A DNA stretch of 48,923 nt from Cyanobacteria bacterium P01_D01_bin.156 (GCA_039024555.1 JBCCQQ010000049.1:1-48923); one strand, 5' to 3'. Shown: positions 233 to 34,799, counted from the stretch's first letter. The notes: generated by a model from the letters alone, not told the origin. Made by a program: numbers and translations.

Positions 233-1201
233 TTATGTATCTAAGGGACTTTTTACACCACGACCGCCACGATTGAGCACATGGGTGTAAATCATGGTTG
301 TTTTAACATCCTTATGGCCTAATAGCTCTTGCACTGTGCGGATATCATAACCATTTTCTAAAAGATGAGTTGCAAAGCTATGGCGAAAGGTATGACAGCC
401 ACCATGTTTTATAATACCCGCCCGATTAATAGCTTTTTTCACTGCTCGTTGTATGGTTCGCTCATAAATATGGTGTCTCCTCACAATCTTGGTTCGAGGA
501 TCGATTGAGCGTTTCCAAGAGGGAAACACAAATTGCCATTTCCACTCGCTATGGGCATTAGGATATTTATGGGCCAATGCATAGGGCAGTTCTACTGTTC
601 CGTACCCCAATGACAGGTCCTGTTCATGGAAGCTTTTAGCTTTCTGCAACTGTTGTTGCAATGGGGCAACTAGTGAGGTGGGTAGCATGGTTCGGCGATC
701 CTTTTGGCCTTTACCATCTCGCACTGTAATTTGGTGATATTCAAAGTCTATGTCCTTGATGCGTAAGCGTAGTCCTTCCATCAAGCGCATACCTGTGCCA
801 TAAAGCAGGCTAGCTATTAGATGTTGAATACCATCCAGGTTAGCTAAGATCCGTTTTGCTTCTGCTTGAGTAAAGACAACTGGTAAGCGTTGAGGACGTT
901 TAGCGCGTTCAATATTGTCTATGTAAGGTAGCTCTATGTCTAAAACTTGACGATAGAGAAATAGCAATGCGCTTAAGGCGACCGTTTGAGTTGATGCTGC
1001 TACATTCCGATGGATTGCAAGGTGTGATAAGTAGGCTCTAATTTCAGATGTCCCCATATCCTTAGGATGTTGCTTGTTATGAAACAAGATGTAATCCCGA
1101 ATGTAGTAGATATAGGACTTTTCAGTGGAAAGGCTAAAGTGCTTCAGACGGGCAACTTCCCTAACCTGATCGAGTAAGCGTGGCGGCTTTGATTGTTCCA
1201 T
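233..1201 (-). CDS. intI: Integron integrase (tyrosine recombinase), 322 aa
   Basis: Catalytic set intact: GMRLME (R), GKGQKDR (K), [12 protein letters not shown] (H-x-x-R), LLGH, TMIYTH (Y). Carries the integron-specific insertion [12 protein letters not shown]...WQFVFPS...RHH and is divergent from a cassette array with attC sites. Confidence 0.97.
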
Positions 1202-1233
1202 CGAACATGTCGTATAACTCCCTGATTGGAGTG

Positions 1234-1408
1234 CTTAACAGTCAAATGTGACGCATAAGCACCCTATTCACCATACTTAACGGTCAAATGTGACGTATAA
1301 CACCCCACTTTCCCGGAATTATGCGTCAAAAATTGTATGTAAGTTCTGTAAATAAGGGTGTTATCACCCAAATGTGACAGATAAGATCCGAAATTATGGG
1401 TCTTATCT
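1234..1408. repeat. Direct and inverted repeats between intI and attI
   Basis: CTTAACRGTCAAATGTGACGYATAA at 1234 and 1276 (42-bp period); partial third copy CAAATGTGAC at 1369; inverted TTATGCGTCA at 1319-1328; inverted pair AGATAAGATCC/GGGTCTTATCT at 1379-1408. Confidence 0.75.
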
Positions 1409-1412
1409 ACCA

Positions 1413-1439
1413 GATCTGACGCTGAATATATAGTTAGCT
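1413..1439 (+). other. Putative attI site, crossover at G/TT 1433-1434
   Basis: Core GTTAGCT at 1433-1439 lies upstream of intI and is the exact complement of the R'' AGCTAAC of the first attC, as expected for the two halves of one integrated cassette. Confidence 0.65.
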
Positions 1440-1571
1440 AGCAAATCGCAAACCTTCCTGAGCGGGCACATTCTTTCTAAAGACAAAAATTTTCCAGTGT
1501 TATGGCAACGTGGTGTTAGGTAGATGTACATTTAGTGCATTGTGATAAATCTAAAAGTAACTTCAGGAAAA

Positions 1572-1955
1572 ATGGGAGAGCTATATTTAGCAATTGATGG
1601 TGATGATGTGGGGCATCGACTCGAATACTTAATGTTGATTAATGAGCGTGAGACTATTTTCGAATTCTCCAAAATCTTTCAAAGTGCTATGAATTGGCTA
1701 GAGATTAAATTAGTGGAAGATTTTGATGCAGATATTATCTTTAATGGAGGTGATAATTTGTTGGCTTGTCTTTCTACAGAAAATCTAACCTCCGAACTTA
1801 TGGAAGAATTAAGAACTGAGTTTGCTAAAAAAGCGGACAGCACCATATCAGTAGGTTTAGGCAATAGTCCGAGACAGGCTTACTTTGCTCTAAAATTGGC
1901 AAAGACGAGTGGCAAAAACTGTATTCGTCATTTTCAGGAACTTGCCAATGGTTAA
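1572..1955 (+). CDS. Minimal CRISPR polymerase (mCpol) domain protein, putative cyclic oligonucleotide synthase, 127 aa
   Basis: YLAIDGDDVG (D9, D11), IIFNGGDN (D61) and C-terminal TISVGLGNSPRQAYFALKLAKTSGKN fit a single small Cas10/GGDEF-like palm of the mCpol family. ATG at 1572 with AGGA RBS preferred over GTG at 1542. Confidence 0.88.
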   Translation: MGELYLAIDGDDVGHRLEYLMLINERETIFEFSKIFQSAMNWLEIKLVEDFDADIIFNGGDNLLACLSTENLTSELMEELRTEFAKKADSTISVGLGNSPRQAYFALKLAKTSGKNCIRHFQELANG

Positions 1956-2679
1956 AACTCTTTTCTTATTTTTGTTTTCTAATCGTGTTGATACATATAT
2001 AAATGCCATTTCATATGCCTACGATGAAATGGAAATTAAAGCGGTCAGACTAGTGTATGTGAAAGGTACAAAAATTGGTCTGAAAGATGATACTCAAGCT
2101 AGTGCTGTGTTTACTGAAATTTGGAGTCGATTACAGGAGTTAGCTGAAAAGACAAACGGTATTTACAAACAAATAAATGAACGTCTACTAGACCGACAGC
2201 TTATACCTATTGAATACTCAAGTTTGAAGATCAGCTTAGGACGCTTATTTAAATTACATGGTGGTCCAAGAAACTGCATCATAGACTTGACAAGTGCTTC
2301 TAAGGTCGCAAGTATTGATGTTTTTACAGTCTGTTTTGCACTGGGGATCAAATCAATTCATACATTTGAGCTAGGGTTGCCATTTGATCCAAAAAGTCCA
2401 GACAAGTTTCTTTATCATGCTCTTTCAAAAAGTGAATATTCGTACACTTGTCTAAGCATCACTCCACCTGTGAGATCTAGTCAGTCATCACTTGTGCGTA
2501 AATCGTCTTTACTCTGGTATGTAGGATGTGTTGCCCTAGTAGTTATGGTTGTTTCACTGTATATCCTTGTAAATCTTGGACCTAATAGTTCATTTGTTCA
2601 GTTTTTAAATTTGACAGCCGCAGTTATTGGATTAGCTTCGCCAGCCTTGGCATTACTTGAGCAACGGCGTGAGCACTAA
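1948..2679 (+). CDS. CARF-like Rossmann-fold protein with two C-terminal transmembrane helices, putative effector, 243 aa
   Basis: ATG at 1948 overlaps the mCpol stop by 8 nt and has an AGGA RBS. Alternating beta/alpha pattern with CIIDLTSASKVASI resembling the CARF D-x-T-x-G-x-K motif; hydrophobic helices LLWYVGCVALVVMVVSLYILVNL and FVQFLNLTAAVIGLASPALALL. Confidence 0.72.
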   Translation: MVKTLFLFLFSNRVDTYINAISYAYDEMEIKAVRLVYVKGTKIGLKDDTQASAVFTEIWSRLQELAEKTNGIYKQINERLLDRQLIPIEYSSLKISLGRLFKLHGGPRNCIIDLTSASKVASIDVFTVCFALGIKSIHTFELGLPFDPKSPDKFLYHALSKSEYSYTCLSITPPVRSSQSSLVRKSSLLWYVGCVALVVMVVSLYILVNLGPNSSFVQFLNLTAAVIGLASPALALLEQRREH

Positions 2680-2685
2680 GATGCT

Positions 2686-2769
2686 AGCTAACACTGCGTT
2701 GCAACGGCGGGAAATAGGCAGTTGGTCAGAATCTAAAGTTACTGCCGCCGTTGAACTTCGCCGTTAGCT
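2686..2769 (+). other. attC site 1 (84 bp)
   Basis: R'' AGCTAAC at 2686-2692 just after the stop codon and R' GTTAGCT at 2763-2769. Inner arms GTTgCAACGGCGG / CCGCCGTTGAAC pair perfectly apart from one extrahelical base. Confidence 0.93.
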
Positions 2770-2818
2770 AACACAGTCAAAACCCTCAAATTCAGACAAG
2801 CGATTCAAGGAGTTTAAT

Positions 2819-3025
2819 ATGGCTTGTAGAGATTGTTCTCGTTGCACAAGATCATTAGCATCCAGAATATTTCGGAGTATGGTTCGGTTTTTTCTAGCAA
2901 TTTGCACCCTATTCGTTTCTGAAATATTGTTGTTTCTCTATCGCATGTTTCTAGCAAAGTGTCCAAATTGTGGGCATGCTCTCAGACATCATCAATTTAC
3001 GACAGATGGGGGCTTCAGAGACTAG
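2819..3025 (+). CDS. Small Cys-rich membrane protein (cassette gene), 68 aa
   Basis: AAGGAG RBS; CRDCSRC at the N-terminus, a central hydrophobic helix and CPNCGHALRHH near the C-terminus; starts 50 bp after attC1. Confidence 0.7.
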   Translation: MACRDCSRCTRSLASRIFRSMVRFFLAICTLFVSEILLFLYRMFLAKCPNCGHALRHHQFTTDGGFRD

Positions 3026-3286
3026 AAACTTAGCCTAACTTCTGCTAACCACCTGACTACGTTTTTAGGAGGTAGTGCTGTTTAACTACGTCGTTATTAC
3101 CCCAGTAATGAAATAGGGTGAGGAGTTTCTAGTCCAAAACCCAGATTTCAGAGGCTTTAAGCAGAAGTCCTTGCCTGTTTGACCACCGGGTTAATAGCTT
3201 TCAGCACCGATGCCTAAACCTTAATACTTCTTGAGTTTTTCACAAGTGACTTAACATAATATTCGCAGTGAATCTTCAAACACCCG

Positions 3287-3751
3287 ATGGTACAAATTTA
3301 TTATCGAGGTATGGCAGCAACGGATGGTAAACCTAAATTAGGTCGTAGCGCTCGTCTTCTGGGTATTAGACCTGGTGTGGACATTGATGTGTCTCATATG
3401 CTGCAAGGTTGGTTAGATTTTCAGGGCTATTTGCATCCTGAAGTAGCACGAGATGATTCAGGTGTAGAGGTGGAAGTCGCTATCAGAAATACAAAAGGCA
3501 TGTCCACATCGCTATCTATTGAAGGGTTACCGGCTTTTCGGAAACCTAAGGCTTTTGGCGGAACAGGGAGAGATCCCTTATGGCGAATTGACAGCAAGTA
3601 CATTAACGGAGATTTAGAAGCCGTCCAAGACAGCCTTACCCATGTCAGCATTATGCCAAGGGTTACAATGTTATTAGAACGATATGAGGCAGCGTTAGCG
3701 GAAACTCAGAACTATTGGCAAAAGGTGGTTGATGATGGCTTGGGTATTTAG
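3287..3751 (+). CDS. Putative Tse2-like ADP-ribosyltransferase-fold toxin, 154 aa
   Basis: YYRGM (R7), GMSTS (S73-T-S75), LPxxRxPxxxGGTGRDPLW and THVSIMP (H119) give an Arg/Ser/His arrangement typical of Tse2-type ART domains. Confidence 0.6.
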   Translation: MVQIYYRGMAATDGKPKLGRSARLLGIRPGVDIDVSHMLQGWLDFQGYLHPEVARDDSGVEVEVAIRNTKGMSTSLSIEGLPAFRKPKAFGGTGRDPLWRIDSKYINGDLEAVQDSLTHVSIMPRVTMLLERYEAALAETQNYWQKVVDDGLGI

Positions 3752-4259
3752 TCTATCGACGGAATGTGGCTCAGAACAAAGCACAGCAGAGCACTTTGCT
3801 CAGCATTTTGAGCCTGTTTCATGGTCTCTATCAAATGGTTCTCAATCCCGGTGCCATTCCACCGTTTTTCAAGATATTGATGAAAACTGGTGGTGTCGAA
3901 TATGTCCTGATGGCATAAGTACAATCGGTATCGAAGCGCCAGACTCAGCCTACTTAATGACTGAGTTAGGTATTTTGCTTTATAAGCACTTGCAGTCTGC
4001 TCCCGCCTTTCGCTACGCCCTAGTCGGACTTGAAGTTGATGAGTTTAGGACATTTGACGAACTACTAAATGTGTCATCTACCCTGAATATACCAGGATTG
4101 GTTTTATCTGAGAGTACTTGGCAGTCACTTGGTTCACTATCGGTATTTAGGGCTTTCAGTTCAGGCTATGTTTGGCAGCCTTACGAAGGGGAAACTTACA
4201 ATCCTTTGACAGTATCTCCATTACTGAAGGAGCAAATGAATCGTCTATTAGCAGCATAG
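3735..4259 (+). CDS. Hypothetical protein, candidate immunity/antitoxin partner
   Basis: Start overlaps the 3' end of the ART-like gene (possible starts 3729/3732/3735); acidic and globular; ends 17 bp before attC2. Confidence 0.6.
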   Translation: MAWVFSLSTECGSEQSTAEHFAQHFEPVSWSLSNGSQSRCHSTVFQDIDENWWCRICPDGISTIGIEAPDSAYLMTELGILLYKHLQSAPAFRYALVGLEVDEFRTFDELLNVSSTLNIPGLVLSESTWQSLGSLSVFRAFSSGYVWQPYEGETYNPLTVSPLLKEQMNRLLAA

Positions 4260-4276
4260 TGGTATTTATCTAAATC

Positions 4277-4360
4277 AGCTAACACTGCGTTGCAACGGCG
4301 GAGCATAAATTAGTCAACTAAATCCAAAGTTACTGCTGCCGCTGACCAGGAACGTTAGAT
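4277..4360 (+). other. attC site 2 (84 bp)
   Basis: R'' AGCTAAC at 4277-4283 and R' GTTAGAT at 4354-4360. The first 25 bp (AGCTAACACTGCGTTGCAACGGCGG) are identical to attC1, and AATCYAAAGTTACTGCYGCCGYTGA is shared. Confidence 0.9.
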
Positions 4361-4375: not shown

Positions 4376-4418
4376 AAGTTACCTCCTAATTTTACTGTTC
4401 AAAATCAGGGGGTAACTT
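4376..4418. repeat. Long imperfect hairpin just after the last attC
   Basis: AAGTTACCTCCTAATTTT-actgttc-AAAATCAGGGGGTAACTT: 18-bp arms with two mismatches. Confidence 0.6.
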
Positions 4419-19255: not shown

Positions 19256-19991
19256 CTAAAATTAATACCTATGTCGCCATGCGTGAATAGCTCATTTCAA
19301 CAATACATTTGGCATTGAAAAAATCTATCAATAGTATGTGCTATCTGGCCTTTAAAGGCATTAGCAGCTTTTTTCCCAGCCATACTATGATCTGACTTCC
19401 AAAGTCCATACATTCATCAGAAACATTCAATCTATCCTTAACGTCTTGTGGCTTGAGTTGACTATTGGTCAATGACAATATGCGAAGTTCACTGGGCATT
19501 GGGGCATCTTGATACTGAGTGACAGTGCCCCGTCCTTAAATGTCTATCAGTCATAGTGTTGAGAGGTAAATGGTAATCCTAACGATGAGATGCCCGATTA
19601 TAGCTATACAAGCACTAAAAAAATATTTATTAGATAGTTAGCCCTCTTAAAACAGCCTCTTTTCTCTTTAAAGAGAAAAATACTTAAATCAAACATAGAT
19701 AGTGTGATGAATACTTTGAGAGGATTGTCGAAGCTGTTTCAACATTAAGCATATGCGTTGGTGGCAATGTAAAAAATATGCTCCAAGATCTCTGCATTAT
19801 CAACTATATTCATCCAATCTTATCCTGGTGTGTTTTTAAGCCGTAGTAGAAGTTATTGACTGACGTTCGTACCGAATTTTGTTCTATTCTTTGGTGTGTT
19901 ATTGATTCTTGTATCTACCGTATTTATACTGCATTGAATTTGTCCACAGGAGCTTTTGGGGTCTGTCCTAGGACACGTACAGAGTGATACT

Positions 19992-22232
19992 ATGAAATAT
20001 GCATTTATTAAGCAGCCCAGAGAAGAAGATTGTGGCATAGCGTGTATTGCCATGGTGGCTAAACACTATGGGCAGCAGCTTTCTCTTACTCGAGTGCGTG
20101 AGTTAGTGGGCACAGGTCGCCTTGGTACATCCCTATTAGGGTTACAGCAAGGGGCTCAAGCATTAGGCTTTCAAGCCCGATCAGGCCAAGCCACCGATGA
20201 CATTTTTAACCGTATTCATCGTCTACCATTGCCCGCTATTCTCCACTGGGGAAACGATCGCTGGGTGGTGTTGTATGGCAAAAGACGAGATCGATTTGTA
20301 ATCGCTGACCCCGGAAGCGGTATTCAACATCTCAGTGCGGCAGATATTAAGCGCAACTGGGGGGATGGTGCCATGCTTTTGATGGTGCCAGATGATACTT
20401 TCTATCGGCTATCAACCCAAAAGAGTAGTCGAGTTGCCGGCATTTTTCAGCAAATCTGGCCTTATCGTCTTTCTCTACTCCAAGTTTTTGCATACAGTCT
20501 TCTTATCGGCCTATTATCCCTGGCGACTCCTATCGCAGTACAGTTCATTATTGATGATGTGCTGATCGCTGGAGATAGTGATTTACTACCCAAAATAACC
20601 CTGGCAGCCCTAGGATTTTGGCTTATACAAGGCCTATTGAACCTTGTTCAAGTGAATGTTCTAGCCAATACCTTTCAGCGGCTAGAACTAGGACTCACCT
20701 TAGAGTTTGCACGTAAGCTATTGCGCTTACCCTTGAACTACTACGAAACTCGACGTAGCGGAGAGTTCTCTAACTACCTCAAAGATATTTCTCGAATTAA
20801 TGAGCTGATTGTAGATGGAGCCATGCAGCTGCCTGGACTGTTTTTTACAGCCTTGGCCGCGTTCGGCTGTATGCTGTTTTTCTACAACAGATTGTTAATA
20901 TTAGTCTCTCTTGTGACGGCAATCCTTATGCTGGTCGTAACCCTAGGGCTATTACCTGTCTTTCAAAATCGTATTCAGCATTTATTAACCCTTAATGTGA
21001 AAAACCAAGCACTACTGGGAGAAATTTTTAGGGGAGCGACTACCTTCAAAACCACCACCGCTCAACCGCAGCTTTGGAAAGAGATTCAAGGGCGCTTTGG
21101 CAATTTGGCCAGTAGAAAGGCAGATATGCTTCAGCTTGGATTTCTCACCAGCCAAATTGCCACACTTATTCGTGGGGTTGGAAGCATTGTGGCTTTTTGG
21201 CTGGGGAGCACGATGGTAATAGCCCAGTCGCTGACGTTTGGACAGCTTTTGGGCTTTAGTATTCTGAGTTATAGCTTTTTAGAGCTAATTAGCTTCATCG
21301 TTAAGTTTTCGCATAGGCTCATGGAAATTAAAACGTCATTGCAACAGTTTGATGACGTTGTCGAAGTTGAAGAAGAAAGTCCTGAAGATTGGCTCAAGCC
21401 TCTGGCTGAAATTCCCTCGGATGGAGATATTGTCTTTAATCAAGTCAACTTTCACTATCCAGGTCGCTTTAATTTACTAGAAACCTTTTCTCTGAAAATT
21501 CCAGGGGGTAAATTTTCTGCCATTGTGGGCGCTTCTGGATCTGGGAAAAGCACGATTGCGAAGATTTTGGCAGGTTTGCATCCCTATCAGTCTGGAGAAA
21601 TTTTAGTGGGTCCCCACAGCCTGCGTGATTTATCTACAGACTGTGTGAGACGACAAGTTATTTTAGTCTCCCAAACAACTCACTTTTGGAGTCGTTCCAT
21701 CTTAGAAAATTTCCAGCTTTGTGCTCCTACTGTGACGTTCAAAGAAATTGCAGCAGCTTGTAAGATTACGGGGGCAGACACATTTATCGACAAATTGCCC
21801 AATGGATATAGAACCGTGCTAGGTGAACACGGTTCTACTCTTTCAGGAGGGCAACTCCAACGTTTAGCGATTGCTCGAGCACTGATATTAAAGCCTGCAG
21901 TTTTAATTTTAGATGAATCCACAGCCGCGTTAGATCCCATCAGCGAGGCTGAGCTGTTACAGCGATTGATGGTTCATCGTAAAGGTCATACAACCGTCTT
22001 AATTAGTCACCGGTCCAGCATCAATAGAATTGTTGATTGGATAGTTGTCGTCAATGACGGGACCACGGTTATGGCGGGTTCTCCTAAGTCCCTATTAGGA
22101 CGGCAGGGAGAACATTTACAGTTTTTAGAAGGAGAACTTCCACCTAATGTGGGAGACACTTCAAAATATTTAATTGCCAACGCAAAAGAGTCATCAGCTC
22201 TTTCTGCACTTCCTGGTCATCTGGAAAAATAA
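19992..22232 (+). CDS. Peptidase C39 domain-containing ABC transporter (PCAT 1)
   Basis: QPREEDCGIAC, ABC membrane domain, GASGSGKS, LSGGQ, ILDESTAALD and SHR. The catalytic His position reads HWGNDRW. Confidence 0.95.
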   Translation: MKYAFIKQPREEDCGIACIAMVAKHYGQQLSLTRVRELVGTGRLGTSLLGLQQGAQALGFQARSGQATDDIFNRIHRLPLPAILHWGNDRWVVLYGKRRDRFVIADPGSGIQHLSAADIKRNWGDGAMLLMVPDDTFYRLSTQKSSRVAGIFQQIWPYRLSLLQVFAYSLLIGLLSLATPIAVQFIIDDVLIAGDSDLLPKITLAALGFWLIQGLLNLVQVNVLANTFQRLELGLTLEFARKLLRLPLNYYETRRSGEFSNYLKDISRINELIVDGAMQLPGLFFTALAAFGCMLFFYNRLLILVSLVTAILMLVVTLGLLPVFQNRIQHLLTLNVKNQALLGEIFRGATTFKTTTAQPQLWKEIQGRFGNLASRKADMLQLGFLTSQIATLIRGVGSIVAFWLGSTMVIAQSLTFGQLLGFSILSYSFLELISFIVKFSHRLMEIKTSLQQFDDVVEVEEESPEDWLKPLAEIPSDGDIVFNQVNFHYPGRFNLLETFSLKIPGGKFSAIVGASGSGKSTIAKILAGLHPYQSGEILVGPHSLRDLSTDCVRRQVILVSQTTHFWSRSILENFQLCAPTVTFKEIAAACKITGADTFIDKLPNGYRTVLGEHGSTLSGGQLQRLAIARALILKPAVLILDESTAALDPISEAELLQRLMVHRKGHTTVLISHRSSINRIVDWIVVVNDGTTVMAGSPKSLLGRQGEHLQFLEGELPPNVGDTSKYLIANAKESSALSALPGHLEK

Positions 22233-22279
22233 TTTTAGTCAATACTTGTTTATTATCACTTTCAGCATAAGTGTTCTCC

Positions 22280-23446
22280 ATGAAACATGATGATGCCTTG
22301 TCTAATTCGCTGTTCGATTCGTTGAATCAAGGAACAGAGTCAGAAGCTTTGGAGTCTGACAAAGCTCACAAATTAGCGATTGATCGCGCTAATGTAGTAT
22401 CTGCGCTAGCCCCTGTAAAACGTTTCGAACCTAGGCAGTCGGTTAGCGAAAATTCTGAAAATGCTACAGTTCCCATCGTTGATAGCTTCTTGCCTGCCCC
22501 CAATCGCTGGTTGATTATTGGTGGGTTAGGACTAGCTGGGGTACTTGGCTTAAGTGCCATTTTTCTGACATCGTTGCCCCATCGCACAATTGTTAAAGCA
22601 AAAGTCAAGGTTGAACCGGTGGCAGAACCCCGGGTCTTACAGTCTGGAGCGGGGGGAACTGTCGCCAGTATTCGTGTACAGAACTATGACTCATTAAAAC
22701 CAAATCAGGTGATAGCCTCTTTCGAAAATCCTGATCTATATTCACAATTGAGCGAGCTACAAGCAAGAATTAGCCAAACTCAACAGCAACTCAAACAACT
22801 CAATGATGAGCTGATCGCGATAGAAGAGCGTCAGGCATCTGGCAGATGGTTGGCATTTAAAGTTCCTCAAGGTCAGTTTGAATATTCGAAAAGATTGCTG
22901 CTAGATAATCAAAATGAGCTGCAACAGCGGTTGACTGTACAACAACAGCAGTTAGCTAATGTTCAGGAACAAATAGATAATACGACCATTTATACGCCCC
23001 TTGCTGGTACCGTTTATGACTTAGAAATAAAAAACGTAGGTCAAACAGTTGCTGCAGGTGAGCCGATTGCTAAAATTATTTCTAAAGATATTCCTTTGGA
23101 AATTAAAGCCTTGGTCTCTGACAGTGATGTAAATATTATTAAAGTAGGTTCACCTACCCAGATCAATCTGGCAAGCTGTGCATATTCTAATTTTGGAATC
23201 TTAGAAGGAGAGGTTGCTGATATCCAAGCATTAACCCCAGAGCTTGCTGAAGGGTTCACAGCTGAAGATGGCCTTTCTCCAAATTTTGACCAACATATGG
23301 TAACTATCGTGGCTAAGCCAGATAATAGTAGACAGCAGACCTGTAAGGTGTTGCCTGGAGTAAACGGTGAGGTTAATATCATCGCTAGGCAGGAACGATT
23401 CTTGAACTTTGTTTTAAGGAAACTACGTTTTAGCAGTAACGTGTAG
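22280..23446 (+). CDS. HlyD-family membrane fusion protein
   Basis: N-terminal TM, lipoyl-like halves flanking a Gln-rich coiled coil, IYTPLAGTV and CAYSNFGILEGEV. Confidence 0.9.
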   Translation: MKHDDALSNSLFDSLNQGTESEALESDKAHKLAIDRANVVSALAPVKRFEPRQSVSENSENATVPIVDSFLPAPNRWLIIGGLGLAGVLGLSAIFLTSLPHRTIVKAKVKVEPVAEPRVLQSGAGGTVASIRVQNYDSLKPNQVIASFENPDLYSQLSELQARISQTQQQLKQLNDELIAIEERQASGRWLAFKVPQGQFEYSKRLLLDNQNELQQRLTVQQQQLANVQEQIDNTTIYTPLAGTVYDLEIKNVGQTVAAGEPIAKIISKDIPLEIKALVSDSDVNIIKVGSPTQINLASCAYSNFGILEGEVADIQALTPELAEGFTAEDGLSPNFDQHMVTIVAKPDNSRQQTCKVLPGVNGEVNIIARQERFLNFVLRKLRFSSNV

Positions 23447-23460
23447 TAATTTTTAAGAGT

Positions 23461-24087
23461 ATGTTGGAATCGGCTGACAACCCACAACAGGATGAGTTAT
23501 TTCCATCTAGGAGCGATGAATTGACGCTGGTGGATGTTTCTGTGGTTGCCGAAGAGCTGGCATTGGATGCAACGTCCACCTCTCCCCAACAGATTTCTAA
23601 ACCAACATCAGGGACCTATACGATAGAGCTTTTTCGTGATGAAGCACAGGTGACGGCCACTGAGCTCTTGTATGGCGATAGCATTTATGTCTTAAACGAT
23701 ATCGATGCGTTGCAAATTCTAAAGCTGCAGCGTAGACGTTCTGTTATTCAGAAAAAGCTGAGTAATTTCTTGGCTGGTGTGCTGATTACCTTTGGTTTGG
23801 TGCTAATGCTTAGCCCCTTATTTTGGTTGATAAAGCTTTTTGGTCTTCTGTTAACCTTGGCTAGTGTAGGCTACGTTGTTTATTTCAACTGGTGGATTGA
23901 ACAGCGTAGACGAGGGGAGTTTGGTTTGTTGCTGACCACTAAGCTCAATACTCAAGTTGTGATTACCAGTCATAATCTCAAAGCTATTCAATCCCTTTAC
24001 CAAATTATGTTTGGGCGTTTAGATGGTGGAAATATCCACGGTGAACCTTTAACGGTCAATATGTACACAGGTGAAACAGTAGGCTAG
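23461..24087 (+). CDS. Hypothetical two-TM protein (DUF6232-like)
   Basis: 208-aa ORF starting 14 bp after HlyD, with a hydrophobic hairpin; family call tentative. Confidence 0.6.
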   Translation: MLESADNPQQDELFPSRSDELTLVDVSVVAEELALDATSTSPQQISKPTSGTYTIELFRDEAQVTATELLYGDSIYVLNDIDALQILKLQRRRSVIQKKLSNFLAGVLITFGLVLMLSPLFWLIKLFGLLLTLASVGYVVYFNWWIEQRRRGEFGLLLTTKLNTQVVITSHNLKAIQSLYQIMFGRLDGGNIHGEPLTVNMYTGETVG

Positions 24088-24120
24088 TTCACCCGTGATG
24101 AGCCAGCTCGTCCTTGGATG

Positions 24121-25455
24121 TTAAAGCTGGGTTATTAGCCTGAGCTTGCGCCATACCATTCTCAGAATGGTATCTTCTTGGGTCAAAATGTCAGCTTGCC
24201 CTGTCATCCCAGCTTGTAACTGACAGTCTCGAGTTTGATCGCTGAGAGAAGTGCGAGAAAGCTGGAGTGTTACTTCGTAGAGTCCACCATCAGCGTTCGT
24301 GCTCACTCTATCTGGAATCGCATTGGGAGCAACGGTATCTGGGGAAATCGTCTGGAATGTTGCGTCTAAAGTACCATAGTCAGTGTAGGGACATGCAGAG
24401 ATTCGTAATTGTACGGCTTGTTGTCGGTCAATTCTAATAATGTCCTGGGGATTGACCCAGGCTTTTGCTACGAGTAAATCGTCATCAGCGGCAATTTCAG
24501 CAATAGACTCTCCCGCCGTTACGACTTGAGCATGGTTGCGCAATTCTAGAGATTGGATAGTACCGGCCACAGGGGCTTTGAGGGTGAGTCTGGTAATTTC
24601 TTCTTCAGTTTGAACCAGATCTTTTTGGGTTTGGTTAAGCTGATTGAAAAGATCGCTACGTTGCTGAATTAAGGTTTCTGCTTCCTGTTGTAGTTGGGCT
24701 AAGGTGGCATTCCCTTCGGCATGGGTCTGGGCAATTTGCTGTTGAGCGATGATGACTTCCGCCGCACTTGGCTGGGCTGTAACTTTGGCTTGTTCGTAGT
24801 TAGCGAGCGCTGATTCTAAAGTAACTTCTCGTTCTCGTAACTGACTGGTTGCGATCGCACCTTCATCTACCAGCTGCCGATAGCTATCCACATTTTCTTG
24901 AGCCAGATCCACTTCAGCCTTTAGCCGTCGCAAATCAGACTGGTTGACTAGCCGAGTTTCCTGTAGTTGCTGCTGAGCTAAAGCCAATTCTGCTGTACTA
25001 GCCTTTAAATTGCCTTCAATTTGGGCTACCGTCGCCTTGATACGTTGATCAACCGATTTCAGCTGATTGTCCAGCTGTAGCACCTGCTGTTCCAGCTGGA
25101 TTACACTGGTGCGTAATTGAGCAGCTTGATTTTGCAGTTCTGTATCATCTAGGTAGGCAATCACATCCCCTACTTTCACCTGTTGATTTTCCTCCACCAA
25201 GATCTCACGCACTTGCCCTGGGACCGTTGCCTCAACAAAGCGGAGCTCCCCAGCAGGACGGATAACAGCCGGTATCCTCACAGTTTCACGCACCGTAATT
25301 ACTTGAGCCAGGGTTAACATGGTTAAAACGCTAACCACACCCGCCAGCCCTCCCAATCGCTGCCATCGATCCATCGGGGGTAAGAAATCAGTCGGTATCG
25401 CTGGACTAATTGCCGCTGGATTAACCTGGGAAACATTTGATATATCGCTCTGCAT
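24121..25455 (-). CDS. HlyD-family membrane fusion protein
   Basis: IRPAGELRFVEA, long coiled coil, LKAPVAGTI, ACPYTDYGTL and LQAGMTGQADI. Confidence 0.93.
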   Translation of the reverse strand: MQSDISNVSQVNPAAISPAIPTDFLPPMDRWQRLGGLAGVVSVLTMLTLAQVITVRETVRIPAVIRPAGELRFVEATVPGQVREILVEENQQVKVGDVIAYLDDTELQNQAAQLRTSVIQLEQQVLQLDNQLKSVDQRIKATVAQIEGNLKASTAELALAQQQLQETRLVNQSDLRRLKAEVDLAQENVDSYRQLVDEGAIATSQLREREVTLESALANYEQAKVTAQPSAAEVIIAQQQIAQTHAEGNATLAQLQQEAETLIQQRSDLFNQLNQTQKDLVQTEEEITRLTLKAPVAGTIQSLELRNHAQVVTAGESIAEIAADDDLLVAKAWVNPQDIIRIDRQQAVQLRISACPYTDYGTLDATFQTISPDTVAPNAIPDRVSTNADGGLYEVTLQLSRTSLSDQTRDCQLQAGMTGQADILTQEDTILRMVWRKLRLITQL

Positions 25456-25527
25456 AGTTAGTCCACAATATCTACAATCTTCAAAAGAACAAAATTATTT
25501 TGAAAGCACCATTGGTCGTAGAGAGTT

Positions 25528-27672
25528 CTAGGGGGTTAGAAAAACCTGGTGCTCGCCTTCTTTTTGGGCTAACTCATTGGGTGGGCCTTGCAAAAATAAA
25601 CTCCCTTTCTGCAACATAACAACCCAGTCAGCCTGCAAAATTACTCGAGGCCGATGACTAATAATGACTGTTGTTTTTCCTTGACGATAAAACAACAATT
25701 TGTCTAGGACTCGGGCCTCCAGCTCAGGATCAAGGGCACTGGTAGACTCATCTAAAATTAAGACTGCCGGGTCGCTGATAATGGCTCTAGCTAAAGCCAA
25801 TCGTTGTCGTTGTCCCCCTGATAGATTAGCCCCAAATTCTCCTAAAACAGTTTGATATTTTTCTGGCAATTCACCAATAAATTCGTCAGCTTGTGCAATT
25901 TGACAAGCTCGCACCACATCTTCAAACGCAGCATTAGCATTACTACTGTAAAAATTTTCTAGAATAGTGCGACTCCAAAAATGAGCTTCCTGAGGGACTA
26001 AGGTTACCTGTTGGCGCAAACAGTTTAAGGAGAGATCCGCCTGATTGTAAGCACCATAGCGAATATTGCCTGATTGTAAAGGATGCAGTCCGGCAATTAA
26101 CTTGGCCAAAGTGCTTTTACCACAGCCAGATTGACCAATTAATGCCGTTACTTTTCCTCCCGGCAGAGTCAGTGAAAAATCATTTAGCAATCCAACCCGG
26201 CCAGGATGACAAAAATTTAGCTGCTGGCAAACAATATCATCACTGCCAGGTAGATTAACTGTGGGTTTTTGATAATCATCCGGGCTTTCGATGGGGGTGG
26301 TAATCACCTCATCAATACGCTGGGCAGCTACCCGGGCACGAGTAAATTCATCACTCAGCTGCACTAGAGTTTCCATCATGGAGGTAACGTACTGGTTGAG
26401 CGTGTTAAATGCTATTAGCTGACCGATGGTGAGTTGTTGGCGAATCACCAGCCAGCCACCGATCCAGAGGATGGCAATGGCTCCAATAGAAGATACCAAT
26501 TGGGAAAAAATACCATTGGAAACGGCCAGCTGATTCCGTTCTAGAGTCAGTCGTCCTAATCGGCCAAATCGACGCTGAAACTCATCCCAAAAATGAGGAA
26601 CCGCATGGGTCGTTTTTAACGTTAGAGCTCCCTTAAATGTCTCCACCAGTAGTCCCTGATTTTCAGCATCGGTAATCAGGAGATTTTGAGTTCGGACCTT
26701 AAGAATGGGCCAAAATATAATCGTAGAGGCCGTCATTGCAACACTAATGGCAATGGCTACCCCAGCCAGCAAACGACTGTAGGCAACCATCAAGCCAATG
26801 GATACTAATGCCACAAATACCTGAGTTGGCACCGTAATAATGGTTTGGGCAACCAGCTGATTGACGACCTGAATATCTTGTATACGGCTAACCACTTCGC
26901 CACTACGACGAGACTCATAATAATTGAGCGGTAACTGCAACAGCTGACGTCCAAAGTCTAAAACCATTTTTAGTTCTAGCCTTTGGCCAAAGTGCAAAAT
27001 TAAATTTGATTGAGTCCATTGCATGAAACTACGCAAACCATTCATGATCACCACAACAATGGCGACGATGGTTAACATACGTAAATCTTGGCGGACTAGA
27101 ACATCATCCGTTAAAACTTGTATCAGTAATGGCAATGCCAATGCCAGTAGACCAATGCCAAAGTTAAGCAACAGCACTTCGGTCAGTAGCTGCCGATGGG
27201 GCTGCAGTGCCTGGATAAAGCCCCTAAAGCTGCCTACATCATCATTATCATTGGCGTAGAAACGTTCCTCGTCGAGTTCTAGCAACAGCATGACCCGATC
27301 GAGCCAGCCCTGCTCTAGCTGTTCGCGGGTGAGATAACGTAGCCCCACTGCCGGATCTGCAACCACGTAGCGCTTTCGTTGTTGACCATAGAGTACGACC
27401 CAGTGGTACCCCTGCCAATGGATAATGGCTGGTAAGGGTACCTCTGATAGTCGGTCAATTAATACATCGGTTGCCTGAACGGCTTGGGCTTGAAACCCTA
27501 AGGACTCTGCTCCCCGGCGTAGGCCCAGCAGCGTGGTTCCTAGCTGGCCTGTACCGGCCATATCGCGCATGCGACTGACCCGAAAAATACGACCGTAATA
27601 TTTTGAGATTGTTGCAAGACAGGCCGCGCCACAGTCTTCTTGGCTCTGTTGCAAAATAGCTGGATAATTCAT
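25528..27672 (-). CDS. Peptidase C39 domain-containing ABC transporter (PCAT 2)
   Basis: QQSQEDCGAAC, HWQGYHWVV and ADP (Cys/His/Asp intact); GQSGCGKS, LSGGQRQR, ILDESTSALD. Confidence 0.96.
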   Translation of the reverse strand: MNYPAILQQSQEDCGAACLATISKYYGRIFRVSRMRDMAGTGQLGTTLLGLRRGAESLGFQAQAVQATDVLIDRLSEVPLPAIIHWQGYHWVVLYGQQRKRYVVADPAVGLRYLTREQLEQGWLDRVMLLLELDEERFYANDNDDVGSFRGFIQALQPHRQLLTEVLLLNFGIGLLALALPLLIQVLTDDVLVRQDLRMLTIVAIVVVIMNGLRSFMQWTQSNLILHFGQRLELKMVLDFGRQLLQLPLNYYESRRSGEVVSRIQDIQVVNQLVAQTIITVPTQVFVALVSIGLMVAYSRLLAGVAIAISVAMTASTIIFWPILKVRTQNLLITDAENQGLLVETFKGALTLKTTHAVPHFWDEFQRRFGRLGRLTLERNQLAVSNGIFSQLVSSIGAIAILWIGGWLVIRQQLTIGQLIAFNTLNQYVTSMMETLVQLSDEFTRARVAAQRIDEVITTPIESPDDYQKPTVNLPGSDDIVCQQLNFCHPGRVGLLNDFSLTLPGGKVTALIGQSGCGKSTLAKLIAGLHPLQSGNIRYGAYNQADLSLNCLRQQVTLVPQEAHFWSRTILENFYSSNANAAFEDVVRACQIAQADEFIGELPEKYQTVLGEFGANLSGGQRQRLALARAIISDPAVLILDESTSALDPELEARVLDKLLFYRQGKTTVIISHRPRVILQADWVVMLQKGSLFLQGPPNELAQKEGEHQVFLTP

Positions 27673-27952
27673 CTAGGGGCAGAAGCACACCAACAAGGGT
27701 TTCGACTTAGCATGCCCAGTTAGCTACTCAAGCCACGATTTTTGGAGATAGTACCTGTGGTATTTCCGTAGAGTATCAATAAATCTTGAACACCTCAGTA
27801 AATTTGTGCATTGCGTTAGTGACCCATAAATGGGTATAAATTTAAGCTAAGAAATTTGGATAGGGCTAAATTCAGAAGTTGGAAGTTAGCAGTCAGAAAG
27901 ACAGAGAGTTGCGAACTCCCAATTCCGAGCACCAGATATTAGGAAATAATCT

Positions 27953-30543
27953 TTACAGGCTATTACAGCTAATGTTTACACCTGATTGAGAGATGTTGTT
28001 GTTGGTAATGAGTTCAATTTGACCAGTGGCATTGGTATCCCAACTACTAGCCTCAATAAAATTATCAACGGATGGAGAGAGAGATAACTGCTGAGACGGT
28101 GGCACATCTTGAAATAAAGCAGTATCAGAGCGCATATCTGCCCAAGTATTATTGAGCATTAAAATGTTGGTAGGATTAGTGGGGATACCTCCCCGACCGG
28201 TTACAATTAATTCGTTAATGCCCAAATCTGAACAACTTTTCGCAATTTGATGACTGCGGTCATCGACTTTGATAGGTAGCTCAACCAAGCCTGTGTTGGG
28301 ATTAATCTCAATTCCATTGATAGAGACTGTTCCGCTTAATCCAAATTTTGAACTGGCGGTAATATCGCTTTCAGGGGTACGCTGCCTGCGAAACTGGGTA
28401 CCCAGAAGTAGCTGAGTTGAAATTGTAATATTTCCCCCATTGCCTTGGGATGCGTCTGCAAAAATGTCACTATTGTCTAAAGCAATGAGTGCTGGGGTCG
28501 AAATTGTAATATTTCCCCATTGCCGACTCCTGGAGATTCTGTTGTGATGCTGCTGCCATTTCTCAACAACAGGAAGTCGGAAACGTCCAGGCTTATATTG
28601 CCAATTTCTCCAGCTAATGTTCGTCCCTTGATGGTGGCATTGTCCCGCAGTATTACCTGATTTGCCTGAATGCTAGCTACCCCGGCATCCCCCGTTCCCA
28701 GGTTCTGGACAGAGATAGTACTGGGACCATTCATCTCCAAAATTGGAGTCGTAATCGTAACTGTACCAGCATCTCCATCAGATACAGGGTCTAGGTTAAA
28801 GAGCTGCCGCTCCAGGAGGCTTGGAATGATTACCGCAGAGCTAATAGAAGTGTTCTCTAGCTCTGTTACGGGGCTAGAGAGAGCAATTCGTTCTGTGGCG
28901 TTAATGGTAATATTCCCAGCCACGCCATCCCCGGCAGACGTGGCGCTAATGGTACTCGTATTTTGCATATCGAGTAATCGCGTGTCGATTGTCAGGCTCC
29001 CTGCATTTCCTGAACCAAAATTAGAAGAGCTAATTGTGCTGGGTACTTGCGTTGATGACACACGACCTGACAAGTTAATGGTATCTGCCTCAATTGTCAC
29101 ATCACCACCAGCCCCAATATCAACATTAATGCTAGTGATACTGCCCCCTTCCAGCAATGAAACATCGTGGGCTGAGATGTTAACATCCCCTGCTGTACCC
29201 GCAGCCACTGAACCACTCGTGATTGAAGAAGAGATCAGTGGGGATTGGGTATTGAAACCTAAAATCGTTAATTGGTTGCTGACGTTCGCGTCAATCTGAC
29301 CACCATCAGCTGCAGAGTAGGTTGCATTGGTAATCAAACCTCCCCCTTCCATGGTCAGATCTTGGGCCGTTAGTTGTAAATCTCCATTCGTGGTTAACCC
29401 CAGATTTTCGCCGACAATGCCGCTGCTAACCAAGCTAGACGAGTCACTGCCACTGATTAAAAGTTGTTCTGAAGCACTGACGTGAATGGAGCCGCCGGGT
29501 TGGGTGGCGGCAAATCCATTTTGACCTAGTAGTAGGGATGTCTCGGTCAAGCTAACTTGACGGCCTGCTAACTGTAATTGCCCACTTTCTCCTGTAAATG
29601 TATGCACAGGAGAAAGTAAGTTAGTTTGCACGGCAACACCGCTGACATTGGCCAGTGAGTGCTGCTGTAGACTCACATCTTGAAACGTAGCAACACTGTC
29701 ATAGTTGAGGGCAATTCCCGTGGCGGTATTGGAGATGTCTACCTGTTCGCCTGGAGCAACTCCGCCAATTTCCAGATTACCGCTGGGGGCAGTGACCACA
29801 CCATCGTTTAGGGTCACGCCATTTCCCACCAAGGCTAGGGTTTGTCCCGGAGCTACCTGTAAGCCAGTTGTCGGTCCTAGCTGCACATGGGGAGCAAATT
29901 CAGACGGTTGGCCTGTTGTATCTATTTTAGCCAGGGTATGACCGACGCCATTCACACTAATTGCGCCAGAGTTTGCCCCCATCTGTAGACCGATGGGGGC
30001 GTTAACGGTCAGTAATGGCGGTGTTTGTGGATCGCTGGCGCTAAATATGAAATCATTTTCAAAAATTAAGCTATCAGCCGTTGTTGCGATAAAAGAAGCT
30101 GGTAAATTCAGCTGGGCCGTGGGACCCAAAATAATACCTGCTGGATTTAATAGGTACAGATTTGCATTGGCTCCACTCAGCGCTAGCGTACCATTAATAT
30201 CGGATGGATTGTTTCCAGTAACCCGACTGAACACATTTTCAACCTGGGGAGATGCGGTTAAATCAAAGACAGCATTGTCACCTGGCGCTAAAGAGAAATC
30301 TTCAAAACTATGAAACAGATTTTGGTTAGCACCTGTTGTTGTGCCTCCAGTAATAAGATAGCTCCCGACTCCGGTGACTATGGTATTCAAGCTATCGTCC
30401 GCAACTACTTGGGCAAATGTCGTGGGGCAGGCTAATAAAATGTTGACAAATGCCAGGATTGGAATTGCTATTTTCATTAAATTGGCATGGCTACATGAGT
30501 GGTTCGTCAAAACCATTTTTTTGAAACATACCCTATGCTTCAA
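27953..30543 (-). pseudogene. Filamentous-haemagglutinin N-terminal domain beta-helix exoprotein with a single-base frameshift
   Basis: NLFHSFEDFS, SRVTG, LLNPAGI secretion domain and GxAGxxxI repeats. The frame breaks at CCCC 28515-28518; adding one base gives GNGGNITIST...SDITASSKFG.GTV...GLVELP and joins the ORF 27953-28288. Likely start 30477-30543. Confidence 0.85.
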
Positions 30544-30686
30544 AAAAAAGCATAAACCCTTAGTCTCAATATTCTGAGGTTATGCACCGTAGTAACTTAG
30601 TATTGCCCACATTAATCTGAGCCTTAACTCGGAGAGTTTAGCCAAACCTGATTCAGAATGGTAGGAGTCTTGCTTATTACAAAATA

Positions 30687-31373
30687 ATGAGAACTCACTA
30701 CATCGGCCATGACCAGGCTTACCAACGAAGACGAGACGATCCCGAATATGCGGGTTGGATCAAACATGAGGAGGTTGCTGAAGATTGGCAATCGACATGG
30801 CAGCCACTTATGGAGAAACGCGCGTTTCCCAACAGTCAGGGCAAGCTGTTGGAGCTGGGCTGTGGGGCCGGGAATGTGAGTATTGCGTTTGCTCATGCAG
30901 GGTATGAAGTGACAGGCATTGATATCGCTCCCACCGCAATCGCCTGGGCAGCTGAAAATGCCGCAAAAGCCAATGTTCATGTCAATTTCCTTCAGGGGAA
31001 TGTGCTTGAATTAGCCGATATTGCTGATGCTTCGTTTGATATTGCCTTAGATGGTCATTGTTTCCACTGCATTATTGGTCGCGATCGCACACGTTTTTTA
31101 CAGGCTGCCCATCGTGTTCTCAAAGTGGGGGGGATTTTAACAATCTGTACCATGTGTAACGAGGTTCCTAAGACAGAATACTTTCAGGAGCATTTTGATC
31201 CCCAATCTCGGTGTTGTATACATGGTGATATTGCTAGCCGATACATTGGTCATTCCAATGACATACTCCAAGAAGTGATGTCGGCTGGTTTCCAGCTCCT
31301 AGATGTAGAGCTTGTGCCCCCTAGACATCAGGAAGATTTGGCAGATTTGCAGTTGATTGCAGAACGAATTTAA
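30687..31373 (+). CDS. Class I SAM-dependent methyltransferase
   Basis: LLELGCGAG, VTGIDIAP, FDIALD and LKVGG. Confidence 0.92.
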   Translation: MRTHYIGHDQAYQRRRDDPEYAGWIKHEEVAEDWQSTWQPLMEKRAFPNSQGKLLELGCGAGNVSIAFAHAGYEVTGIDIAPTAIAWAAENAAKANVHVNFLQGNVLELADIADASFDIALDGHCFHCIIGRDRTRFLQAAHRVLKVGGILTICTMCNEVPKTEYFQEHFDPQSRCCIHGDIASRYIGHSNDILQEVMSAGFQLLDVELVPPRHQEDLADLQLIAERI

Positions 31374-31558
31374 GTACAGCCTGAAAAGGCTAGCTAATAT
31401 GTGGAGATCTTTTAAGGAGTAGAGTTTGAGTACTCAAGTTATCCTCAGGATGAGCGATGCCAAACGGTTAAGTCATTAGCAAGTTGTTGCAAGGATTACT
31501 TGTATTTCGTACTGGAGCACGTTAGGCTTCCATCCGTAAATACATTGTGGAAGTCAGT

Positions 31559-32023
31559 ATGCAACCCGACCCGAGCCAACCCATTGAAGAGAACTTGTGG
31601 TGGGCAATTCCTGGCAAGTTGGCTGGTGTGCGTCAGCCTGAGGCTGAAGAGCTACCCAAGCTACAAGCAGCTGGTATAGGGGCAATTGTTTCTGTTTTAG
31701 AAGATTCTGCAAATATCTCTCTATATGAATCCGTTCAAATTCCCCATCAATGGCTGCCCATTGAAATTGATGCGGCTCCTAGTATTGAACAGCTGAGTCT
31801 GCTTGAAAACTTTATTGAACAGCAACAGGCTGAAGGTCGAGCCGTTGCCATTCATTGTTCAGGTGGCAAGCACAGGACAGGTACAGCCATTGCTGCTTAT
31901 CTAATTCGCCAGGGCGATTCCTATCAGCAGGCGATGCAAACGCTTTTAACCGCAAACTCGGGCATTGAGCTACCTGATACCCAAGATGATTTTTTACAGC
32001 AACTGGCACAAGAGAGCACGTGA
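31559..32023 (+). CDS. Dual-specificity/tyrosine protein phosphatase
   Basis: HCSGGKHRTG (CX5R). Confidence 0.9.
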   Translation: MQPDPSQPIEENLWWAIPGKLAGVRQPEAEELPKLQAAGIGAIVSVLEDSANISLYESVQIPHQWLPIEIDAAPSIEQLSLLENFIEQQQAEGRAVAIHCSGGKHRTGTAIAAYLIRQGDSYQQAMQTLLTANSGIELPDTQDDFLQQLAQEST

Positions 32024-32330
32024 GCATAGCCTCTCCTACTTGGAACGATACTGTGACAAGAATCGATCGTAACGTCCACAATAACTCTCAGACTAGGCAT
32101 AGGCATTGGTAATTAACGCATCAATGGTAATTCTTGTTGTTTTAGATAATAGAGTGTAAGACGCACTAGCCCTGGACGCCAGCTAATCACCTCAAGGAGG
32201 GGCGTAAGTTGAGCAGTTTCCTTCTGAGGGAATGGTCAACTATCCAATTTTTTAGGCTGTTTTGGTCATAAAGAGTCTTTACTCTTAGTCAGGACTATTG
32301 CAGAGACCCAATTCGTCATTGGTAATTACT

Positions 32331-33074: not shown

Positions 33075-33290
33075 GCACTTTGTTGGGCAATCCGAACTCC
33101 ATAGAGCTTTGCTCCTCTCCCAGAGTACTCTAATCAAAACCGTGACTGCGGGTCATCAAAGTCTCGCCATTACCCATTACGATGGACAGTACGGAGTTTC
33201 CTGGACTAAGGCAGGGCTTGAAGCTTACCTGTAGGTCGGGATAAAGTTTCCCATTGAATATCCAAAAAATATTAGCCATATCATTACCAA

Positions 33291-33740
33291 ATGCAATTGC
33301 AACCTATTGAACCTAGTCATTTAAGAGAGTGTGCCAACTTATTTGTCTCAGTCTTCAGTAATTCACCTTGGAATGAAACATGGAAGCATGAGGTAGCTTT
33401 AAGGAGATTGAAAGACTGTTATAATTTTCCAGAATCTTACGGTATTGTGGCGATCTCAGAAGAAAAAGTTCTTGGCTTTGCTATTGGTTACATTGAGGTA
33501 TGGCATGAAGGTCAACATTTCTACTTGAGAGAAATGTGTGTTCAGTCTACCCATCAGCGAAGTGGAATTGGTACGAAAATAATGGATGTACTTTACCAAG
33601 ATCTGACAAGTAAAGGTATCAGCATGATTTATCTATTGACGATGCGAGATAGTCCAGCCGCAGCCTTCTATGAAAAGTGTGGGTTTTCAAATCAACCTAA
33701 AATAACTATGATGCTGAAAACAACAACGTCACGTTCATAG
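33291..33740 (+). CDS. GNAT family N-acetyltransferase
   Basis: PWNETW, VQSTHQRSGIG and FYEKCGF. Confidence 0.9.
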   Translation: MQLQPIEPSHLRECANLFVSVFSNSPWNETWKHEVALRRLKDCYNFPESYGIVAISEEKVLGFAIGYIEVWHEGQHFYLREMCVQSTHQRSGIGTKIMDVLYQDLTSKGISMIYLLTMRDSPAAAFYEKCGFSNQPKITMMLKTTTSRS

Positions 33741-34729: not shown

Positions 34730-34799
34730 ACAAGGTCAACCTAACGTTTAGGCGTAAATGAAATGGATTAACTTTTCACTCAAGTTATGGAGTAACTCG

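Follow-up and report, generated by a model that had tools for sequence, protein, structure and literature searches.

The window (the whole 48,923-nucleotide stretch of DNA that was analysed) contains a complete integron, which consists of an intact integrase gene, an attI site and two cassettes bounded by attC sites (Table 1). The first cassette carries a two-gene operon in which the gene for an mCpol nucleotide cyclase (ORF1) precedes the gene for an effector with a CARF domain and two C-terminal hydrophobic helices (ORF2), and the operon is independent of CRISPR and CBASS genes. The gene identities, folds, catalytic residues, operon, cassette boundaries and intact integrase are documented below.

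Table 1. Features of the integron and its two cassettes, numbered from the first nucleotide of the window.
Feature	Position	Strand	Basis or remark
Intact integron integrase gene intI (322 aa), oriented divergently to the cassettes	233..1201	-	TIGR02249
intI/cassette promoter region, with 42-nt direct repeats AAATGTGAC at 1244, 1286 and 1370 and short inverted repeats	1202..1420	.	
attI core: L box 1421-1427, 5-nt spacer, R box GTTAGCT	1421..1439	+	crossover between G and TT, 1433/1434
Gene cassette 1, 1330 bp, 138-nt leader, carries the Panoptes operon	1434..2763	+	attI and attC1 crossovers
ORF1, mCpol (OptS-like) nucleotide cyclase, 127 aa; catalytic D9, D61	1572..1955	+	PF18182, NF033576, structure
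ORF2, CARF-2TM effector, 243 aa; CARF fold about 1-175, then two C-terminal hydrophobic helices	1948..2679	+	PADLOC, model
attC1, 84 nt: R'' AGCTAAC, L'' GTTGCAAC, L' GTTGAAC, R' GTTAGCT	2686..2769	+	6 nt after effector stop
Gene cassette 2, 1591 bp	2764..4354	+	attC1 and attC2 crossovers
68-aa Cys-rich ORF resembling a zinc ribbon; scores under every cut-off, possibly not a real gene	2819..3025	+	
Tse2-like ADP-ribosyltransferase toxin domain protein, 154 aa	3287..3751	+	PF18648 56.8 bits, cut-off 26.6
Probable immunity protein, overlaps the end of the toxin gene	3729..4259	+	
attC2, 84 nt; shares its left 25 nt with attC1 and closes the array of two cassettes	4277..4360	+	

The mCpol and CARF-2TM operon

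An earlier note, made from the sequence alone, had described two coupled genes with an AGGA before each start, encoding a stand-alone palm-domain protein of the mCpol type and a CARF protein with two C-terminal transmembrane (TM) helices, and this description was borne out. The two open reading frames share bases 1948-1955, the motifs IDGDDVG, FNGGDN, AKTSGKN and DLTSASK were all found in the translations, and AGGA is present at 1565-1568, where the 3 nt left before the ATG are a marginal spacing, and at 1936-1939, which leaves 8 nt before the second start. ORF1 could alternatively begin with an in-frame GTG at 1542. The 8-nt overlap suggests that the genes are translationally coupled. The coding DNA of the operon has a GC content of 37% compared with 47% for the genome, and the GC3 values of its two genes (0.31 and 0.28) compare with about 0.5 for two housekeeping genes in the window.

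ORF1 matched the mCpol family PF18182 with 91.5 bits (cut-off 26.4) over residues 5-120 and NF033576 with 79.3 bits (cut-off 40), and its closest solved relatives were the OptS structures 9mnr (E 2e-10) and 9nwn (E 9e-10). The predicted model (pLDDT 93.7) had OptS 9mnr as its top structural match (Z 18.3, rmsd 2.0, 119 residues), followed by a runner-up with a Z score of 13.8. When 42 of the 88 mCpol homologues found were aligned, D9, D11 and D61 were invariant in all 42. In the alignment with KpOptS, D9 and D61 correspond to the catalytic D6 and D57, and S33 and Q37 to the base-contacting S30 and N34 (residues of PMC12657218); the S30 position of KpOptS favours adenine (PMC12657218). ORF1 has no sensor domain. 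An ordinary GGDEF fragment, the possibility against which the earlier note had asked ORF1 to be checked, was rejected because the motif is GGDNL and the mCpol scores are far higher; GGDEF structures (Z 10.7-12.4) are well below OptS, and the GGDEF family is absent among the six Pfam matches of ORF1 at E<=1. GTP cyclohydrolase III, a common database label of the homologues, was rejected because of the far higher mCpol score.

ORF2 matched no Pfam or NCBIfam family above the cut-off, and the PADLOC model CARF_m9--CARF_TM (PDLC01992) matched its residues 3-240 with an E value of 3.4e-57. The predicted model had a pLDDT of 83.1, with less confident TM helices (pLDDT 60-78). CARF proteins accounted for the top 22 of the 50 structural matches listed (Z 8.7-10.9), with an rmsd of about 3.2 over about 132 residues. 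The matches include Card1, Cdn1, Can2, ring nucleases, Cad1 and Csm6; Foldseek agrees, and has Cam1 (8t66) among its top matches. The two C-terminal TM helices are a prediction, which is supported by hydropathy peaks in a 19-residue window at 192-210 (2.59) and 219-237 (1.91) and by helices of the predicted model at 173-210 and 215-242. Two C-terminal hydrophobic segments were present in 159 of the 180 effector homologues examined, and residues D113, T115 and K119 of the DLTSASK motif were invariant in 30 close homologues. The effector profile search returned 261 representatives at E<=0.001, and CARF-TM homologues lie directly behind mCpol in nearly all loci with room for one.

The integron platform and cassette 1

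The integrase matched TIGR02249 with 480.9 bits (cut-off 265), and its motifs hold R139, K164, H270, R273, H296 and Y305, which we take to be the tyrosine-recombinase residues. The integron platform was matched in 130 of the 173 genomes of the family, and its sequence is conserved in relatives up to about position 1436. Of the 27 non-self loci that have a match to the platform, 16 give alignments that stop at 1435-1439 and three more give alignments that continue only to 1442-1445, with a different sequence after each break. The R box of attI is the exact complement of R'' of attC1 (7/7). In run X1, which is possibly the source sample, nine contigs diverge from the reference after 1435 or 1437, and a single assembly piece covers 1413-2764. 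The attI breakpoint and the attC1 boxes set the ends of cassette 1, which therefore spans 1434-2763 and occupies the first position. Its GC content is 38%, compared with 47% for the genome. A crossover at the GTTAGGT at 1515 was rejected because the homology with related platforms ends at 1433-1439.

The cassette leader has a second motif that resembles a simple site at 1505-1523 (AAC, 5 nt, GTTAGGT). Over 19 nt this motif has 84% complementarity to attC1's left arm, with which it could pair when the cassette is single-stranded; alternatively, it could be the relic of a site. The direct and inverted repeats at 1234-1410, in the spacer between intI and attI, are kept in related cyanobacterial platforms and are candidate sites for a regulator or for IntI. 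With the patterns tried, no LexA-like site was found in this spacer. No sigma-70-like site lies on the plus strand between 1150 and 1572, the scan was at chance level (6 sites, 7.6 expected), and the Pc and PintI promoters were not located in the 1202-1420 region.

An attC site consists of R'', L'', L' and R' boxes and folds into a bottom-strand hairpin with an extra-helical base. The boxes and extra-helical bases of attC sites have been described, and integrons are known from cyanobacteria (PMC4889954). The attC1 site just behind the effector gene has the four boxes, the extra-helical base and the hairpin, and its bottom-strand fold is better than that of 199 of 200 shuffled sequences (z = -3.28). 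Since the first covariance model (R1) contained the window's own sites, a leave-out model (R2) was built on 20 sites outside the window, not one of them adjacent to an mCpol system, with an alignment guided by R1. With this model attC1 scored 52.7 bits (E 3e-11) and attC2 40.5 bits. Covariation over 16 attC sites gave nine pairs that had changed on both sides, and none of 500 shuffles was as high, a result that is partly circular because the sites were picked for being palindromic. The joint of an excised cassette 1 circle was not seen in the contigs of four runs, which drop rare forms. Behind position 2691, after the effector gene, a low-depth contig of a close relative in run X3 has a spacer and core resembling those of attI where the window has the body of attC, and this is possibly an attI/attC hybrid.

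Cassette 2 and other integron elements of the genome

An assembly piece of run X1 covers 2737-4304 of cassette 2, which is present as a single copy in the genome, with related pieces in run X4. The probable immunity protein matched no Pfam family; its nearest ESM Atlas clusters are unnamed cyanobacterial proteins (0.94), and Imm64 at 0.89 is a lead. The fold of attC2 is no better than that of shuffled sequences (z -0.42). Its right arm is of another type with mismatches in the L box. The site may be a chimera that recombines less readily, and a hairpin lies behind it at 4376-4418. A candidate third attC after the 68-aa ORF (about 3033-3110) was rejected, with a fold z of 0.16 and no match to the covariance model.

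Across the genome, 150 candidates were scored and 21 attC-like matches were obtained at E<=1. Three further copies of intI are present, of which one is of intact length, one is frameshifted and one is a fragment. These copies and about 19 scattered attC-like sites lie on contigs that include C92, C102, C124, C16, C20, C34, C44 and C80; C102 has the frameshifted intI with two attC sites, and several attC pairs elsewhere have no integrase. Contig C5 carries a second copy of the attI platform (110111-110350), which is 90% identical and has a duplicated attI core, with an attC downstream at 111819-111905 and no intI match on the contig. Further along the window, 19956-30543 encodes two pairs of a peptidase C39 ABC transporter and an HlyD secretion protein, together with a TPS-domain protein; this region is unrelated to the integron.

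Signalling and defence systems in the same genome

The genome surveyed is 99% complete, in 149 contigs. SMODS, CBASS cyclases a and b, and RAMP gave no match in the genome, and the Cas10 palm gave none besides ORF1; the controls were positive for all of these. There was also no genome match for SAVED, cGAS (NF041078), Cap15 or Prok-E2_B, for which the controls were silent too. The only CRISPR system seen is of type I-E, at the sole Cas1 locus (contig C16, about 25700-35000), with a WYL gene upstream. The lack of any cas10/RAMP or CD-NTase match in the genome agrees with the earlier proposal that the pair is a CRISPR-independent module. Because neither a CBASS cyclase nor type III CRISPR was found, the genome has no evident system to be guarded. 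Such a genome is no exception, since in the published survey 53% of the genomes with mCpol have SMODS enzymes and 47% are without them (PMC12657218).

Distribution of mCpol and CARF-TM loci and their attC sites

The survey comprised 29 distinct cyanobacterial loci with mCpol and CARF-TM, 22 of them two-gene and seven fused, after duplicates, one split locus, one mCpol remnant and loci with other effectors had been left out. In 7/29 loci an attC site is found no more than 35 nt from the stop of the effector gene, and six of these sites are strong (the 34-60 bit class). The strong sites, with 34.2-52.7 bits for the downstream site, are found 6-35 nt behind the stop in the window, L079 and L050, which are two-gene loci, and in L077, L083 and L142, which are fused. 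L142, which has attC on both sides, was found after both covariance models had been built, and L042 and L047 were searched with the first covariance model only. L017 has a weak attC (18.5 bits) plus one upstream and two more downstream sites, and L081 has a trace (14.4 bits, E 0.22). The chance expectation calculated from the attC density of this genome is 0.002 in 29 loci, among which kin are not independent. No attC of at least 18 bits was found in the other 22 loci, among them L037 (70-72% identity) and L014, which are the closest relatives, and the non-cyanobacterial and metagenome loci scored gave no match to the covariance models; both results speak against a general association. The counts of loci with no attC are upper bounds because the models miss long attC types, as at the metagenome locus L032, where a 244-nt attC-like palindrome with matched R''/R' lies downstream of 1742, after the CARF-TM gene.

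Single-chain fusions of mCpol, CARF and 2TM, 440-490 aa in length, occur as cassettes or beside intI (L077:2139-3551, L083:8418-9887, L142:532-1860 and L078:1812-3233), and their architecture is contained in the published table. Behind an intact intI, L077 occupies the first position, and L078 is divergent to an intI fragment.

Six loci (L017, L079-L082 and L140) belong to a second clade, with an effector of 261 aa, and their DNA homology runs from a GTTAT core into the left arm of attC. A detectable attC is kept in two of the six and has decayed in four, and these shared ends point to delivery as a cassette followed by decay. Members of this clade have exactly the published D11/D63/D64 numbering and threonines 1-2 residues before T207, which suggests that the cyanobacterial pair tested, that of Cylindrospermum stagnale (Cst), belongs to it. 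If the Cylindrospermum system does sit there, it could itself be the relic of a cassette. The 261-aa clade is 24% (mCpol) and 28% (effector) identical to the window pair. The seven attC-bearing effectors are not one clade (AU test p = 0.00015, 18 rows, quick tree), in a comparison whose group was defined by attC, though after earlier quick trees had been seen, and this means that capture or loss took place more than once.

In terms of abundance, the effector profile matched 12 of the 401 genomes of the class, and mCpol was found in 11 of the 173 genomes of the family. Viral contigs contained three distant mCpol loci, 30-37% identical, none with a CARF-TM effector. At L022, L025, L030 and L072-L073, CARF-TM is interrupted or truncated, several times by IS-like sequence, and mCpol is intact where it was seen; broken effector genes beside an intact mCpol would fit selection against a toxic effector. 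L001/L086 has a 463-aa protein with a C-terminal mCpol, an array of three attC sites and a broken intI, and at L137 an unassigned 347-aa gene lies upstream of mCpol.

Discussion

Type II Panoptes was defined in 2026 as the combination of mCpol and CARF-TM (PMC13577387). The mCpols of Cylindrospermum stagnale, Sphingomonas and Ahniella (Cst, Sph and Aaf) each have 3'3'3'-cA3 as their product, formed at about 1 per hour. When cA3 is absent, CARF-TM is toxic, for which it requires its TM part; Acb2, Crn4 and Acb1 trigger it, phages that bear Acb1 are restricted, and the addition of tags abolishes function (PMC13577387). The system acts alone in phage defence, and its 'guard' function is described as still undemonstrated in the Discussion of that paper. 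We consider it probable that cassette 1, at the head of a complete chromosomal integron, encodes a guard system of the type II Panoptes kind, in which constitutive cA3 holds CARF-TM off until phage depletes it. By analogy with the three characterised type II systems, mCpol would slowly and constitutively turn ATP into 3'3'3'-cA3, and cA3 bound to the CARF dimer would keep the membrane effector inactive. A phage sponge (Acb2) or a phosphodiesterase or ring nuclease (Acb1, Crn4) would drain cA3, and the effector deprived of it would change conformation, perturb the envelope through its two TM helices and arrest the infected cell. From integron biology, IntI presumably put the 1330-bp circle into attI at the crossover. 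Insertion at attI implies that cassette 1 was the last one added or was moved to the first position, which is usually the position of highest expression (PMC13434031).

In a variant of this explanation, the guard logic and the cassette are the same and the decoy is cA4, an isomer of c-di-AMP or a mixed cyclic nucleotide, and hence the phage triggers differ. The assignment of cA3 is an extrapolation, because the window pair is 24-28% identical to the clade that resembles the tested Cst pair and because single substitutions shift mCpol products (PMC12657218); GGDN stands here in place of the D63-D64 pair of Cst, and the structural neighbours of ORF2 bind cA3, cA4 or cA6 alike. However, cA3 was the product of each of the type II enzymes tested, which come from three unrelated genera (PMC13577387), and S33 is consistent with the use of adenine; we regard another decoy as unlikely.

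It is also conceivable, and compatible with a cA3-dependent guard, that the cassette is mainly a selfish addiction element, in which a small-molecule antitoxin would decay after excision or silencing of the cassette by IntI, the effector would arrest the cell and the array would be stabilised. The toxin/antitoxin (TA) logic of type II Panoptes (PMC13577387) fits such a role, as do the TA cassettes that restrain excision in Vibrio and kill cells with high excision rates (PMC13108822), the lack of a guarded system in the genome, the toxin/immunity-like pair in the neighbouring cassette and the repeated presence of Panoptes in cassettes. That phage defence would be secondary is nevertheless very improbable, as 22 of the 29 cyanobacterial loci, including the closest relatives, have no adjacent attC of at least 18 bits, 47% of the published mCpol genomes are also without SMODS (PMC12657218), and stand-alone phage defence is documented (PMC13577387). 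Moreover, cA3 binds tightly and co-purifies, and loss of the cassette may simply dilute both parts. Least probable of all is positive signalling, in which infection would switch mCpol on and its product would activate CARF-TM as in CRISPR-associated Cam1: Cam1 is among the top Foldseek matches and the sign of regulation was left open for effectors other than 2TM-beta in PMC12657218, but the later study of the same architecture found inhibition by cA3 (PMC13577387) and ORF1 has no sensor domain.

The type II guard system in an integron cassette can be extended to a broader proposal, which we put forward tentatively and which may well be wrong: integrons would be a main vehicle, so far unrecognised, for the spread of type II Panoptes among cyanobacteria, and the cassette would act at once as a tripwire for phage and as a brake on the shuffling of the array. 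The two-gene and fused lineages would have been captured independently at attI or at secondary GTT sites and domesticated as attC decays. Excision, or demotion from the first position, would deplete cA3 and arrest the cell, and this would hold even with no CBASS or type III CRISPR to guard. Because the antitoxin is a small molecule, such a cassette would be self-selecting.

The system itself adds little, since type II Panoptes is already characterised. The integron setting offers a mechanism for its patchy spread (12/401 class genomes), and the cassette is a natural switchable construct with which to ask whether a decoy-nucleotide guard also acts as an addiction module. A guard that apparently has no guarded system in the same genome bears on the undemonstrated 'guard' function (PMC13577387), and a sub-clade about 25% identical to the Cst-like clade lets one ask whether cA3 is universal in type II.

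Comparison with known systems

The present pair resembles type II Panoptes in its two-gene operon, its 127-aa stand-alone mCpol, the 52-residue spacing of the catalytic aspartates, the CARF domain with a C-terminal TM pair, the mCpol-first gene order with probable translational coupling and the cyanobacterial host. It differs from the tested systems in belonging to another sub-clade and in having GGDN where Cst has D63-D64 (catalytic residues D11/D63; PMC13577387), and from the 261-aa clade in its 243-aa effector, which is without an insertion of about 20 residues. Unlike the systems of PMC13577387, it is packaged as an integron cassette, and its host genome has no detected CBASS or type III CRISPR. 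Type I Panoptes (OptS/OptE; PMC12657218, PMC12657230) shares the mCpol fold and active site (KpOptS, Z 18.3) and the inverse logic, and only type I has an S-2TM-beta effector, N-terminal TMs and a cyclic dinucleotide signal.

With regard to the earlier note, its overall interpretation stood for the family and mechanism, failed on novelty and overlooked the integron context. The published definition of type II Panoptes (PMC13577387) supports, by analogy, the proposed Panoptes-like system with inverse signalling, in which the sensor is a CARF domain and the signal probably a cyclic oligoadenylate, and mCpol-CARF pairings had indeed been reported, with about 40% of mCpol genes adjoining CARF+2TM (PMC12657218). 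The suggestion that this divergent cyanobacterial version might be new did not hold, as the characterised model is itself cyanobacterial. Supplementary Table 3 of PMC12657218 contains 'Cyanobacteriota' 218 times and 'dCARF' 134 times, with both two-gene and fused cyanobacterial forms, and it catalogues Halomicronema hongdechloris WP_080813553.1 as mCpol->dCARF+TM+TM. This is the architecture found here, for which that table, as searched, records no integron context. Named Halomicronema database proteins (P0059 and P0016) are 63% identical to ORF1 and 58% to ORF2. With type II Panoptes described and the Halomicronema form catalogued, neither the architecture nor its occurrence in cyanobacteria is new.

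What is new here is only the occurrence of type II Panoptes as the first gene cassette of an integron. No paper linking Panoptes to integrons was found in a search of open papers and some of their supplements. The word 'integron' does not occur in the main text of PMC13577387, PMC12657218 and PMC13712596 or in PMC12657230, and neither 'integron' nor 'IntI' occurs in the supplementary files of PMC12657218 that were searched. In PMC13640721 'integron' is used only generically, and PMC13434031 treats it in a separate section. Integron-borne anti-phage and TA cassettes have been described mainly in Vibrio and in mobile integrons (PMC13434031, PMC13108822), and no Panoptes cassette was found among them in the literature searched. 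Because defence genes in integron cassettes are already an established theme, the addition made here is incremental. Like those defence genes, which are kept as attC cassettes and turned on when they reach the first position (PMC13434031, PMC13108822), the window's operon is stored as an attC cassette and is in the first position, and TA cassettes likewise occur in arrays.
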